NCBI GenBank assembly: GCA_029881675.1
Contig: JAOUMD010000004.1
Location: forward strand, 1-53,065
Length of the DNA stretch: 53,065 bases
Source: Minisyncoccota bacterium
GTDB taxonomy: Bacteria; Patescibacteriota; Microgenomatia; UBA1400; PJMF01
Reading direction: 5' to 3'
Shown: positions 11,601 through 15,239 of the stretch, piece by piece
Layout: each line of letters starts with the position of its first letter
How positions within the stretch are numbered: position 1 is the stretch's first letter
Program-made: the position numbers and the translations under genes
Notes under the pieces: model-generated
What the model saw: only the letters and a program-made list of their open reading frames with translations
Database searches by the model: none
Told to the model about the DNA's origin: nothing

Positions 11601-12371
11601 TTAGTCAAATAGTTTGTCTGTATTAATACGAATGGAACCAGTACCTTCACAAGGCATTCCTCTCTCAAATTTTTCAGATTGGAGTTCTTCGTCATAATCT
11701 ATAATTGCATCAATCATATAATCTAAAAAGTCTTCTAAAGATCCACTAAATTGCCAATTATTGTTTTCTCCGGTTTCTGCTCTAAAGTCAGAATTCCAAA
11801 CTCTCTTTTTTGGTAATTGAAATTCAACTAAGTATTTATCATTATTTGCATCAGAATCATCTTTAATAAGTCGAATTCTAAATCTGACATACCTTCTATT
11901 TTCGAGCTCTTCCCATTCTCCCATCAGGTCAGTAAAAAGCCCACCTCTTTTTGCCATGTCATTCATCGTTTTAACATATTCAGAATGATCTGATGGCTCT
12001 GTGTAACCATCCCATTCTTCCCATGGGTATAGTAAAACAAACTTTAATTCAATCGATAATTCTTCCAAATTTTCTTCAATAATTAAACTAGAATCATATT
12101 GTCCCTCGATATCACCATTCTTTTTCTTTTTACCCACCTTATCCCAAAAAGTTCTAATAGCTTGACGTAAATTTAAATCTTCGGAAATTTTTAATAGTTC
12201 TGCCCACTCTGGTCTTAGTCTCAATTCTTCGTCTCTGAATGATTCTTCTTGCTTATCTTCAGCTGTAATCATTTGTGATATGACAGCATCAGCACTACGT
12301 TGTAATGATCTCTCATCAATTTCTAATTTAAGTCTTTGTTCAAAAGTTAAGTGTTCTTTATTGTTAGGCAT
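11601..12371 (-). CDS. Hypothetical acidic protein
   Basis: Long ORF; likely start ATG12371 (MPNNKEH); no motif recognised. Confidence 0.65.
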   Translation of the reverse strand: MPNNKEHLTFEQRLKLEIDERSLQRSADAVISQMITAEDKQEESFRDEELRLRPEWAELLKISEDLNLRQAIRTFWDKVGKKKKNGDIEGQYDSSLIIEENLEELSIELKFVLLYPWEEWDGYTEPSDHSEYVKTMNDMAKRGGLFTDLMGEWEELENRRYVRFRIRLIKDDSDANNDKYLVEFQLPKKRVWNSDFRAETGENNNWQFSGSLEDFLDYMIDAIIDYDEELQSEKFERGMPCEGTGSIRINTDKLFD

Positions 12372-12573
12372 ATTGTGTAAAAAAAATCCACTTTCCAATG
12401 GGCAAGTGGTTTATAAATAAATTTCTGAAAATAATTATAACATGTTCTTGTTAAATTATAGTTTTAAGCTTGTTTAATCAACCCTATGATCACCTATTTC
12501 TAATATTTATTTTCAAGTTCTTTAACCTCATTACTTAGTCTTTAAGTTAAAGTAATATTGATCTAAGTCTTTC

Positions 12574-12659
12574 TGGCGGAAGTGGAGGGATTCGAACCCA
12601 CGAAGCCCGAAGGCTCACGCTTTCCAAGCGTGTGCAATTGGCCACTATGCGACACTTCC
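12574..12659 (-). tRNA. tRNA-Ser(GGA)
   Basis: CACGC-TT-GGA-AA-GCGTG anticodon arm, long variable arm, GGTTCGAATCC, encoded CCA. Confidence 0.96.
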
Positions 12660-12779
12660 ATTGCTTTCAGACTTGAATTATATCATCTATCATCTGTGTA
12701 GAATTACTGATATTTATTCCTACTCAAGCGGGGTATACATCCATTATGCATTGTGCATTATGCTATACTTATTTATTAA

Positions 12780-12857
12780 ATGAAAAATATTTATTTTACA
12801 CATCCAATGAAGAATACCTGTCTCCAAATTATTTGGGTCCAGCGGGGTGTGTCGTAA
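12780..12857 (+). CDS. Putative 25-aa leader peptide MKNIYFTHPMKNTCLQIIWVQRGVS
   Basis: Follows TGCTATACT (12761-12769); its 3' end overlaps a segment complementary to the 5' arm of the downstream terminator. Confidence 0.4.
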   Translation: MKNIYFTHPMKNTCLQIIWVQRGVS

Positions 12858-12880
12858 CAAATATTTAAAAAAATAAAAAC

Positions 12881-12910
12881 TACACCCCGCACAAAGAAGC
12901 GGGGTTTTTT
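12881..12910 (+). terminator. Conditional (attenuator-type) terminator
   Basis: ACCCCGC-ACAAAGAA-GCGGGGT followed by Ts; its 5' arm can alternatively pair with GCGGGGTGTG at 12842-12851. Confidence 0.6.
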
Positions 12911-12938
12911 AAATCCCTAACGGGGAAGAAAGGCAATC

Positions 12939-13109
12939 ATGGACGGTGTACAGCGAGTTCCATATAGCAGAAAAGCATTAGAAAACTTAGCAATGGCGCT
13001 TCGCGTCGATACTGCAGCTATTTGGTTCAATCCTACAACCAGCCGTGTTGATCTAAAAGAAACTAGGAGAGATGAAGATCTTGACGAGTTAATGGAAGCC
13101 GAGGAGTAA
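12939..13109 (+). CDS. Unannotated 56-aa protein MDGVQRVPYSRKALENLAMALRVDTAAIWFNPTTSRVDLKETRRDEDLDELMEAEE
   Basis: Open frame ATG12939-TAA13109 with SD-like GAAAGG; below the ORF-track size cut-off. Confidence 0.55.
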   Translation: MDGVQRVPYSRKALENLAMALRVDTAAIWFNPTTSRVDLKETRRDEDLDELMEAEE

Positions 13110-13130
13110 ATAATTACTCTCGAGTAGACA

Positions 13131-13139
13131 TGATATAAT
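13131..13139 (+). promoter_or_regulatory. Extended -10 promoter of the thrS leader
   Basis: TGATATAAT, ending 7 nt before the leader ATG. Confidence 0.65.
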
Positions 13140-13146
13140 ATTCTCA

Positions 13147-13203
13147 ATGTTATTGAAGAAGTTTCTTTTACCAACCACTACCACCACAACGATGAAGCGT
13201 TAG
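13147..13203 (+). CDS. thrS leader peptide MLLKKFLLPTTTTTTMKR
   Basis: Six consecutive Thr codons ACC ACT ACC ACC ACA ACG upstream of the threonyl-tRNA synthetase gene, followed by an antiterminator/terminator. Confidence 0.85.
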   Translation: MLLKKFLLPTTTTTTMKR

Positions 13204-13260
13204 GGAGGTTTAGTGTTTAAAAGAAAACGAGACCTCCCGAAAGGGGGGTCTTTTAGTTTT
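13203..13260 (+). promoter_or_regulatory. Transcription attenuator (antiterminator 2:3, terminator 3:4)
   Basis: GGGAGGTTT (13203-13211) pairs with AGACCTCCC (13230-13238), which alternatively forms AGACCTCCC-GAAA-GGGGGGTCT followed by TTTAGTTTT. Confidence 0.85.
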
Positions 13261-13466
13261 GGAGACCTTTTGGGCGCAAAAGTTAAAACACACGTGTAAT
13301 AAAACATTAATAAAAAGGAATAAATATAGTTTTAGAGTACAGAGTAGCGTCAATATAAAATGTTTAAAAACTATTCGGGTTTGGTTAAAATTCGGTTACA
13401 GAATAGGGCTTTTATAGGTTATGATTATTTTATAGAAAAGTACCTAAGAATATTAAGAAAAAAGTT

Positions 13467-15239
13467 ATGAAAAAAGATAATAAAGAGTATCTATTTAAAT
13501 TGCGTCATTCAGCAGAGCATGTCTTGACTCAGGCAATGGTTAATCTCTATGGAAGAGATAAGATTATTATGGCCATGGGTCCTGCTACAGAAGAAGGGTT
13601 CTATTTTGATTTTGAGACAAAAGATATCAAGGTATCAGAAGAAAATTTTTCCAAGATTGAAAAAGAAATGTATAAGATCGTTAATAAAGGTTTTGATATT
13701 ACTCGTCATGAGATTGAGATTAGTGATGCTAGAGAATTATTTAAAGATAATTCATATAAGCAAGAATGGCTTGATGAGATTGAAGCAGCAGGAGAGAAGG
13801 CAACTGTTTATTGGACAGGAGAGCCTAATGCTGAGGGTAGTTTTGTAGATCTTTGTAAGGGTCCTCATATTGATAATACAAAAGAAATTGGAGCTATTAA
13901 GTTACTTAGTGTTGCTGGGGCATATTGGCGTGGTGATGAGAAAAACCAGATGTTAACTCGTATTTACGGGACTGCATTTGAAAGTAGAGAAGAGCTTAAG
14001 GCATATCTTCATATGCTTGAAGAAGCCAAGAAAAGAGATCATAAGAAACTTGGTAAAGAGTTAGACCTCTTTACTTTCTCTAACTTAGTTGGAGCAGGCT
14101 TACCGCTTTGGACTCCAAAAGGCACTCTAATTCGTAATATTCTGGAAGACTATGTCTGGCAACTTCGTAGTGCCAAAGGTTACCAAAAAGTCACTATTCC
14201 TCATATTACAAAAAAGGATTTATATGAGACTAGTGGCCATTGGGCAAAGTATGAGGATGATTTATTTAAGATTGAGACAAGAGAGGGACACACATTTGCT
14301 ATGAAGCCAATGAACTGTCCTCATCATACTCAGATTTATGATCACGTCCCAAGATCCTACAAAGATTTACCTCAAAGATATAGTGAGACAACTATGGTTT
14401 ACCGTGATGAACAATCTGGTGAGTTAAGTGGTCTTTCTCGTGTCAGATGTATTACCCAAGATGATGCCCATGTCTTTTGTAGAGAGTCACAACTTGAAGA
14501 TGAGATGTTAGCTATCTGGGATATTATTGAGACTTTTTATAAAGATACAGGTTTCCCTAAACTAGAAGTGAGATTATCCCTTCATGATCCAGAGAAGATG
14601 GAGAATTATCTTGGAGAAGAAGAAGATTGGCAACGTTGGGAAGATGGTTTAAGAAATCTAGCTAAAAAGCGTGGAGTAGAGTTTGTCGAACAAAAAGGCG
14701 AGGCAGCTTTCTATGGTCCTAAGATTGACTTCATTGCATATGACTCAATTGGTCGTGAGTGGCAAGTTGCTACAATTCAGGCTGATCGTAACATGCCAAA
14801 AAGCTTTGATTTAAACTGTGCCAATGAAGAAAATGAAGTAGAAAGAATAGTCATGGTCCATGCTGCAATCATGGGTTCAATAGAAAGATTTATGTCTATT
14901 CTAATTGAGCACCATGCAGGAGCATTCCCAGTTTGGATATCTCCAGTACAGGCAGTTGTTCTCCCTATCTCAGATAGACATTTAGAGTATGCAAAAGAAG
15001 TAGCAGCACAAGCATTAGAGTTAGGTCTTCGTGTTGAAGTAGTAGATACTAATGAGAGTCTTTCTAAAAAGATTAGAAATGCTCAAAAAGGCAAGATTCC
15101 ATATTCATTAGTAGTTGGTGACGAAGAAGTAGAGAAGAAGACAGTAGCTGTGCGTAGAAGAGGTGAGAGAGAACAAGAAGTGGTCTCTGTAGATGAGTTC
15201 TTGGCTAAGTTAGTTAAACAAGATCAGGATAAATCTTAA
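13467..15239 (+). CDS. thrS: Threonine--tRNA ligase (no N-terminal TGS domain)
   Basis: RHSAEH and DLCKGPH editing motifs, KPMNCP, TQDDAH, AAFYGPKIDF, GSIERF. Confidence 0.98.
   Translation: MKKDNKEYLFKLRHSAEHVLTQAMVNLYGRDKIIMAMGPATEEGFYFDFETKDIKVSEENFSKIEKEMYKIVNKGFDITRHEIEISDARELFKDNSYKQEWLDEIEAAGEKATVYWTGEPNAEGSFVDLCKGPHIDNTKEIGAIKLLSVAGAYWRGDEKNQMLTRIYGTAFESREELKAYLHMLEEAKKRDHKKLGKELDLFTFSNLVGAGLPLWTPKGTLIRNILEDYVWQLRSAKGYQKVTIPHITKKDLYETSGHWAKYEDDLFKIETREGHTFAMKPMNCPHHTQIYDHVPRSYKDLPQRYSETTMVYRDEQSGELSGLSRVRCITQDDAHVFCRESQLEDEMLAIWDIIETFYKDTGFPKLEVRLSLHDPEKMENYLGEEEDWQRWEDGLRNLAKKRGVEFVEQKGEAAFYGPKIDFIAYDSIGREWQVATIQADRNMPKSFDLNCANEENEVERIVMVHAAIMGSIERFMSILIEHHAGAFPVWISPVQAVVLPISDRHLEYAKEVAAQALELGLRVEVVDTNESLSKKIRNAQKGKIPYSLVVGDEEVEKKTVAVRRRGEREQEVVSVDEFLAKLVKQDQDKS

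Follow-up and report, generated by a model that had tools for sequence, protein, structure and literature searches.

A predicted leaderless threonine attenuator upstream of thrS in a Patescibacteria genome

The leader region upstream of thrS

To our knowledge, almost nothing is known about gene regulation in cells of the Patescibacteria/candidate phyla radiation (CPR). Here, we describe a candidate leader-peptide attenuator upstream of thrS, the gene for threonine--tRNA ligase (ThrRS), on contig JAOUMD010000004.1 of an ultrasmall Minisyncoccota bacterium (assembly GCA_029881675.1); the window is the whole stretch of DNA that was analysed, 53,065 nucleotides (nt) long. The source assembly comprises 1.08 Mb in 44 contigs, of which the window is contig 23, and is 94.6% complete. 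Among named records, the closest ThrRS genes come from the Patescibacteria group (78% identity) and from Dojkabacteria and Pacebacteria (62-64%), in line with the initial annotation, a reading of the letters alone, which had assigned the DNA to a CPR cell.

The element coordinates in Table 1 were obtained by reading positions 12800-13600 of the window directly, base by base, and this reading bore out to the base what the initial annotation had proposed: a -10 box, a 7-nt gap and an open reading frame (ORF) of 18 amino acids (aa) with six consecutive Thr codons that use all four synonyms. The leader ORF is absent from the ORF list of the analysis because that list has a floor of 20 aa. The first G of the segment 2 core GGGAGGTTT is the last base of the stop codon, and this core (13203-13211) can pair with AGACCTCCC (13230-13238) in segment 3 through eight Watson-Crick pairs and one G-U pair, giving the antiterminator that had been anticipated. 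Alternatively, segment 3 is the 5' arm of a terminator at 13229-13252, recovered by both a terminator scan and the fold, with a stem of 10 bp, six of them G-C, and a GAAA loop; the T tail, TTTTAGTTTT, runs to 13260 and is broken by AG. The minimum-free-energy fold of 13146-13262 consists of this terminator and a long, imperfect 1:2 helix in which 13162-13185 pairs with 13204-13226; its energy is -35.3 kcal/mol (z-score -2.83), and 1 of 200 shuffles folds equally well. The motifs CACTA (13176-13180) and TAGTG (13211-13215), singled out earlier as part of a 1:2 helix, lie inside it and are paired there through their ACU/AGU cores. Every sequence-level feature of a ribosome-mediated attenuator is present, and conserved as described below, upstream of a gene that matches TIGR00418. 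Eight short frames in the entire 1.08-Mb genome combine at least four identical residues in a row near the stop codon with a terminator, and the one described here is the sole Thr run among them.

An Rfam scan of window positions 12300-13700 gave no family above threshold, and among its matches up to E = 10 there was neither a Thr leader family nor the T-box (RF00230), whose core motif GTGGNACC(A/G)CG is absent upstream of the window's thrS. Membership in Phe_leader (RF01859) was rejected, as the match scored 29.2 bits against a gathering score of 55, mostly from the terminator. Matches to Trp_leader (23.5 bits) and Leu_leader, both sub-threshold, fall on a separate terminator, and the former was likewise set aside. 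This second hairpin (12884-12905, ACCCCGC...GCGGGGT) looks like a bidirectional terminator with T runs on both strands, and sits between the gene for tRNA-Ser(GGA) (12574-12659, minus strand) and a 56-codon ORF (12939-13109) that has no NCBIfam match.

Table 1. Coordinates of the Thr leader, of further leaders in the same genome and of T-box-like leaders (positions without a prefix refer to the window; C, contig of the source assembly; L, thrS locus of a relative)
Feature	Position	Strand	Remarks
Extended -10 promoter element TGATATAAT	13131-13139	+	Sequence read; no good -35
Spacer attctca (7 nt)	13140-13146	+	Between -10 box and ATG
Leader ORF MLLKKFLLPTTTTTTMKR (18 aa)	13147-13203	+	ATG 13147, stop TAG 13201-13203
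Six consecutive Thr codons, ACC ACT ACC ACC ACA ACG	13174-13191	+	Putative sensing site
Segment 1	13162-13185	+	5' strand of 1:2 helix in minimum-free-energy fold; includes Thr codons 1-4
Segment 2	13203-13226	+	Core GGGAGGTTT at 13203-13211; alternative pairing to segment 1 or segment 3
Segment 3 GAGACCTCCC	13229-13238	+	Terminator 5' arm, also partner of segment 2
Segment 4 GGGGGGTCTT and T tail TTTTAGTTTT	13243-13260	+	Terminator 3' arm 13243-13252, after GAAA loop 13239-13242
A+T-rich spacer, terminator to thrS	13261-13466	+	206 nt
thrS, threonine--tRNA ligase, 590 aa	13467-15239	+	TIGR00418, 663.7 bits against cut-off 383.65
trpB leader MKLNTQLTTAWWNSLK, tandem Trp (WW)	C13:17454-17504	-	Leaderless-looking; 287 nt before trpB (TIGR00263, 569 bits)
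hisS leader MNTNITAQLVAHHNSHI (HH..H)	C39:31916-31969	-	Antiterminator and terminator; 173 nt before hisS (TIGR00442, 387 bits)
His leader MLINIALYQNNHHHHAISEVI, ending ...NNHHHHAISEVI (HHHH)	C1:835-900	+	Antiterminator and terminator; 101 nt before gene for 275-aa protein
gatC leader MKLTLLINQQNQQAN (QQNQQ, Gln/Asn codons)	C31:49497-49544	+	GTG start; terminator 16 nt before gatC
Mini-ORF MKKTKLFTNCCINPLK (Cys-Cys)	C39:14346-14396	+	384 nt before 165-aa ORF; no obvious cognate logic
Unit of -10 box, mini-ORF, G-rich segment and terminator	C3:17033-17089	-	Before 423-aa ORF; no obvious cognate logic
Unit of the same composition	C22:4001-4051	+	Before 185-aa ORF; no obvious cognate logic
Unit of the same composition	C10:18936-19016	+	Before ArsC/low-molecular-weight-phosphatase-like gene; no obvious cognate logic
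T-box-like leader	C41:5521-5664		Before proS
T-box-like leader	C16:10152-10331		Before glyRS
T-box-like leader	C31:25999-26194		Before aspartate aminotransferase gene
T-box-like leader	C31:18530-18723		Before argH
T-box-like leader of thrS	L026:3294-3453	-	Core intact
T-box-like leader of thrS	L116:226-384	-	Core intact
T-box-like leader of thrS	L030:1146-1287	+	Core intact

Conservation and alternative pairing in relatives

The initial annotation had proposed to look for the Thr run in related genomes, and it recurs there. We assembled the thrS upstream regions of the genome itself and of 60 relatives, 36 from the same family and 24 from the same order, and counted a leader when at least four Thr fell within seven codons in the last 20 codons of a stop-to-stop frame of at most 70 codons and a terminator-like hairpin lay at most 90 nt from the stop. 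By this criterion, 27 of 58 related genomes have a Thr leader before thrS, namely 25 of the 35 genomes of the window's own family and 2 of 23 in the order's other families (one doubtful). Three genomes are out of the count, G051 (locus L020, 286 nt upstream, no Thr run) and G011 and G036, which offer no upstream sequence; the upstream region of L141 was scored negative. An even sample across the phylum, for which 120 of about 146 thrS places were fetched, yielded one Thr leader in 119 usable regions. In an independent contig collection, 17 of 67 further thrS loci were positive, among them one record titled Nealsonbacteria, compared with at most 4 loci for any other amino acid and none for Thr on the other strand. 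As a control for specificity, the same criterion found Thr leaders before 0 of 30 hisS and 1 of 29 gatC genes. Because the same unit recurs before relatives' thrS, a chance origin of the unit is ruled out.

The Thr mini-ORFs of relatives have 13-23 codons, occupy the same position before thrS and carry 4-7 Thr per seven-codon window, encoded by ACT (92), ACC (83), ACA (25) and ACG (7); locus L139 has eleven Thr codons in a row. The Thr cluster is the sole conserved feature of these peptides. Four loci that satisfy the criterion are doubtful, L087 and L092 having no start or -10 box and a terminator that abuts the stop, and L128 and L132 having antiterminators of -1.8 and -2.8 kcal/mol. Runs of His (7 of 59 scored thrS upstream regions), Tyr and minus-strand Val were rejected as other frames of the same ACC/ACT repeat.

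The alternative helices covary among relatives. At 28 loci, the post-stop window pairs with the 5' arm of its own terminator at a mean of -11.95 kcal/mol, compared with -9.39 kcal/mol in cross-locus combinations; none of 20000 permutations reached the observed mean, and the preference for the own arm also holds for the 22 loci left after pruning of near-duplicates. The covarying segment 2/3 pairs include GGGAGGTTT/AGACCTCCC in the window and GAGGCT/AGCCTC, GGCTGGTTT/AAACCAGCC and GCGGGG/CCCCGC elsewhere. Similarly, the 1:2 protector helix between the Thr window and its own post-stop region has a mean of -13.72 kcal/mol against -11.81 kcal/mol cross-locus (again 0 of 20000 permutations), and pairing of the Thr window with an equal-length upstream control region gives -5.12 kcal/mol. 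The post-stop region is rich in G (35%) and poor in C (11%), a composition required for pairing with ACC/ACT repeats. Across 38 loci, the start of segment 2 lies a median of 12.5 nt (interquartile range 11-13.75) downstream of the last Thr codon, counted from that codon's first base, and falls between -8 and +5 nt relative to the stop codon. In leaders of the TTTTTTIPAGE type, which have a longer peptide tail, segment 2 has moved into the ORF and stays equally far from the Thr codons. A spacing kept from the Thr codons is what a switch based on the ribosome footprint predicts.

The promoter is conserved in its distance to the mini-ORF as well. Of 42 leaders, a set that includes one duplicate and a few doubtful loci, 37 have a -10-like hexamer (mostly TATAAT, TATACT or TACAAT) that ends 5-12 nt upstream of an in-frame start, with a mode of 7-8 nt. 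TG precedes the hexamer in 16 of these 37, and the starts are ATG in 32, GTG in 3, CTG in 1 and ATT in 1. This distance leaves no room for a Shine-Dalgarno sequence and points to a probably leaderless transcript. For the window, transcription is predicted to start at ~13146-13147, so that the mRNA would begin at the AUG or 1 nt before it. The suggestion that the upstream ORF is leaderless thus gains support from the homologous leaders.

A tRNA-Val(GAC) gene lies near thrS in 13 of the relatives' loci (L009, L013, L015, L016, L018, L022, L023, L027, L116, L120, L133, L138 and L141), often just upstream and on the same strand, in conserved synteny. These loci have no clear Thr leader; L013 carries a four-Thr run without a terminator.

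Proposed mechanism and competing explanations

We base our interpretation on the sequence elements, their alternative pairings, covariation, the fixed spacing in relatives and the identity of the downstream gene. Altogether, these observations make it very probable that the element is a ribosome-mediated transcription attenuator that ties transcription of thrS to the supply of charged tRNA-Thr. In the mechanism that we propose, transcription would start about 7 nt past the extended -10 box, the RNA would begin at the leader AUG, and a 70S ribosome would load once the 5' end of the RNA emerges. With plentiful Thr-tRNA(Thr), the ribosome would reach the TAG at 13201 and cover segment 2 (13203-13211), the 3:4 hairpin would form and RNA polymerase would terminate at the T tail near 13252-13260. 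With scarce Thr-tRNA(Thr), the ribosome would wait on the Thr codons (13174-13191) and hold segment 1, leaving segment 2 free to pair with segment 3 before segment 4 is made, so that no terminator would form and transcription would read through into thrS. If no ribosome loads, helices 1:2 and 3:4 would both form and transcription would stop. Folds in which we masked an assumed ribosome footprint of -12 to +15 around the P site, with nascent RNA up to 13243, behave as this scheme predicts: the 2:3 helix forms with the ribosome on Thr codon 2 (-16.6 kcal/mol), and nothing stable forms with the ribosome at the stop codon (-2.8 kcal/mol).

Several observations weigh against this interpretation. 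At equilibrium, the best fold of the full-length RNA contains the terminator no matter which part the ribosome masks, and antitermination must therefore be kinetic, as in trpL. The terminator arms are out of register in the MAFFT alignment of 38 leaders, for which RNAalifold consequently gave no consensus structure; the evidence for covariation thus comes from the per-locus duplex-permutation tests, which are custom-made and not of the R-scape type and which compare related loci. Leaderless initiation would have to use GTG, CTG or ATT in a few relatives, which is unusual. The element is missing in 31 of 58 related genomes and is therefore dispensable. The distance from the terminator tail to thrS is 206 nt in the window compared with a median of ~90 nt in relatives, and within this spacer lie islands, conserved in the same-genus genome, that might act as an additional promoter outside the regulation. 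Finally, we infer from the DNA the transcription start (5' end), leaderless initiation, stalling, termination (3' end) and the direction of the response. The conserved islands are three in number in the pairwise alignment (~13343-13426; AGTNGCGTCAAT, AAATTCGGTTA and GTTATGATT) and may provide a second promoter for basal expression of thrS; weak promoter-like sites occur in the spacer at 13261-13466.

Four other explanations of the element deserve consideration. The hairpin could be the terminator of the upstream 56-codon ORF and the Thr mini-ORF a chance frame; this ORF is on the same strand and stops 120 nt short of the hairpin, its C-terminal end can be aligned to the same-genus genome, and terminator-like hairpins are frequent (7 found against 1.6 expected in 3.2 kb). 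This scenario is hardly credible in view of a Thr mini-ORF and terminator before thrS in 27 of 58 relatives, with covarying pairings and a fixed distance from the Thr codons to segment 2, and of a unit that is not recurrent before hisS or gatC. As a second job, the hairpin may nevertheless stop read-through from the upstream gene. The leader might also sense Thr-tRNA as we propose and act through Rho-dependent termination, mRNA decay or control of thrS translation, an output that we regard as quite improbable. The leaderless Cys-rich small ORFs (sORFs) of mycobacteria do act on translation of the next gene, according to the part of that report available to us (10.1101/834739), and the spacer to thrS in the window is long, at 206 nt. 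However, at all positive loci a G+C-rich hairpin is directly followed by a T run, and segment 2 competes with the 5' arm of this hairpin. The hairpin lies 34-382 nt from thrS (median ~90), too far away to sequester the start region of the gene.

Since segment 2 would be freed by a stall anywhere ahead of the stop codon, the element might report a general slow-down of ribosomes or the state of transcription-translation coupling, under any translation stress, rather than threonine in particular. Leaders of the ermC type sense translation inhibitors in a related manner, by way of a stalled ribosome that frees a segment. We consider such a general sensor very improbable here, given that only the Thr cluster is conserved in the peptide, that the spacing is set from the Thr codons and not from the stop, and that the genome's other leaders carry codons cognate to their own downstream genes. 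That the leader binds a protein or a tRNA, either because ThrRS regulates its own gene by way of a tRNA-Thr mimic, as in E. coli, or as a degenerate T-box, appears exceedingly unlikely: the negative Rfam result for 12300-13700 and the absence of the T-box core motif speak against it, and relatives conserve the frame, its Thr codons and both alternative helices but not the loop sequences. T-box-like leaders do precede thrS in other Patescibacteria, and binding of ThrRS to its own leader in E. coli is mentioned in the part of PMC2965389 available to us.

Other leaders, T-box-like elements and precedents

The putative Thr attenuator is part of a wider set of cognate leaders. Two mechanical whole-genome scans for leaders, followed by annotation of the downstream genes, uncovered four more leaders of this architecture, each with cognate codons, before trpB, hisS, a histidine-racemase-like gene and gatC (Table 1). 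The trpB leader has a post-stop GGGAG segment and a CTCCC/GGGAG terminator. His leaders precede hisS, a further aminoacyl-tRNA synthetase (aaRS) gene, both in this genome and in relatives, in which His-rich leaders with terminators are present in 10 of 30 hisS loci. The second His leader precedes the gene for a 275-aa protein with the DapF fold that matches the histidine racemases CntK (89 bits, cut-off 300) and HisR (85 bits, cut-off 400) below threshold, and this gene looks like a His-sensed one. A Gln/Asn leader is present in 4 of 29 gatC loci, including that of a same-genus genome (L184), with which it shares an identical NQQNQQAN; we know of no leader-peptide control of a tRNA amidotransferase, although no literature search was aimed at this point. 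The gene content is consistent with Thr auxotrophy, as had been suspected: thrC and the homoserine dehydrogenase gene were not found in the 94.6% complete assembly, and a search for thrB gave only weak GHMP-kinase hits.

The initial annotation had named the T-box as the Firmicutes mode of thrS control; this stands, but the T-box is not foreign to the present group. Four leaders of the genome itself, those of proS, glyRS, an aspartate aminotransferase gene and argH, match the T-box below threshold, at 39-45 bits (E 3.5e-9 to 1.4e-7). T-box-like and peptide leaders occur in one genome, and both kinds of sensors of tRNA charge thus coexist. Moreover, at three leader-negative thrS loci from the order's other families, a T-box-like element (44, 39 and 32 bits) immediately precedes the gene on its own strand; in these elements the core AGAGUGGAACC(A/G)CG is present and 78-91 stem I model positions are missing. 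Of the 119 regions of the phylum sample, 15 have the T-box core motif on the thrS strand and none has it on the opposite strand; 12 of these 15 match RF00230 at E <=0.01, with scores of 27.6-68 bits that do not reach the gathering score of 93. At gathering thresholds, Rfam scans of 40 thrS loci returned only tRNAs; the T-box-like leaders were seen only in E-value mode and by motif search. The T-box core motif was found in none of the 35 genomes of the window's family, 25 of which have the leader peptide; in the phylum sample the proportions are the other way round, with 15 motifs and one leader peptide in 119 regions.

The simplest reading of this distribution is that a leader peptide took over control of thrS in the window's family. 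We give an even chance to the broader scenario that one Patescibacteria family replaced the T-box found before thrS elsewhere in the phylum by a leaderless Thr attenuator and runs a small regulon of ribosome-sensed leaders (thrS, hisS, trpB, the histidine-racemase-like gene and gatC), in which the gatC leader would sense the products of its own amidotransferase. If this is true, no gene-regulatory circuits of CPR bacteria would have been worked out earlier than these, which would also give direct evidence that transcription is coupled to leaderless translation in these cells.

In enterobacteria, leader-peptide attenuators include trpL, thrL of thrABC and pheM of pheST, and pheM controls an aaRS operon. 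The element upstream of thrS resembles all three in its short ORF with cognate codons, its 1:2, 2:3 and 3:4 helices, its intrinsic terminator and the predicted placement of a stop-codon ribosome over segment 2, and it resembles pheM in that the gene regulated is a synthetase gene. By contrast, it has no sequence or covariance-model relationship to these leaders, it is apparently leaderless and without a Shine-Dalgarno sequence and, unlike thrL of thrABC, it would regulate thrS and not Thr biosynthesis, in a host in which neither thrC nor hom was found. In E. coli, thrS is governed by a translational operator, a ThrRS-binding mimic of tRNA-Thr beside the ribosome-binding site that acts on translation. 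Feedback control of thrS through its own 5' region would be common to both systems; here, however, a mini-ORF and a terminator lie ~200 nt upstream of thrS. With the T-box (RF00230) of Firmicutes thrS, the element shares the gene, a tRNA-Thr charging signal and a choice between terminator and antiterminator, but a T-box RNA binds uncharged tRNA directly, whereas here the ribosome is the proposed sensor and no T-box motif is present.

The nearest precedent in print is thrL of Streptomyces lividans; thus, a leaderless Thr leader before thrS has already been described. The part available to us of an RNA-sequencing-based reannotation of strain TK24 reports leaderless thrL-thrS, alaL-alaS, trpL2-trpS and leuL2-leuS, and gives thrL as MKRVRPFLETTPGFVPAR, 18 residues with two Thr, for which termination is "not clear" (one hairpin, no U tract) (PMC8079986). 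As far as that part of the report shows, the two systems have in common a Thr-containing ORF of 18 residues directly before thrS, leaderless there and predicted to be so here, that belongs to a set before aaRS genes. They differ in that the element here has six Thr, a canonical terminator and a covarying antiterminator and belongs to another phylum, and the peptides, compared as printed and without alignment, look unrelated. The available portions of two comparative-genomics papers likewise predict attenuators before aaRS genes, namely before trpS and leuS in Streptomyces (PMC1262725, which also cites pheST as an attenuator-controlled synthetase operon) and, as a His leader, before hisS paralogues in Bacillus (PMC2965389, which also records cases of T-box/leader-peptide switching at one gene); thrS figures in neither of these portions. 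Mycobacterial polycysteine leaderless sORFs, in the corresponding part of their report, act on translation by unmasking the ribosome-binding site at several loci of one design, a "ribulon" (10.1101/834739). They, too, are sensory mini-ORFs with a run of codons for a single amino acid, leaderless as the one here is predicted to be, but the output hairpin here is a terminator far from the thrS start.

Full-text literature searches, with subscription-only papers outside their coverage, returned nothing on leader-peptide attenuation in CPR/Patescibacteria and nothing on attenuation under Patescibacteria/CPR together with T-box riboswitch. The available text of a 2024 perspective on Patescibacteria treats riboswitches only as a possible tool and has no match for "attenuat" or "leaderless" (PMC11665869). 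To judge by its sequence, the element is of a kind already known, and its novelty is that of an unusually clear and complete attenuator in a new phylum, concentrated in one family. It would provide a concrete sensor of amino-acid supply in cells that are apparently unable to make threonine, indirect evidence that cells of the phylum couple transcription tightly to translation and initiate on leaderless transcripts, and a natural part for regulated expression in a group without genetic tools. The swap of T-box and leader peptide at one gene, at the level of a family, would offer a clean example of the replacement of one RNA sensor by another, suited to the study of this process.

The genome contains four further units of related design, a Cys-Cys mini-ORF and three combinations of a -10 box, a mini-ORF, a G-rich segment and a terminator (Table 1). 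Several look-alikes were not counted: frames that overlap the ends of tRNA or tmRNA genes (contigs C37 and C13), mini-ORFs before unknown genes, and a Leu run on contig C11 that lies in the end of an apparent ribosomal protein L27, as recognized from the peptide without a family call.

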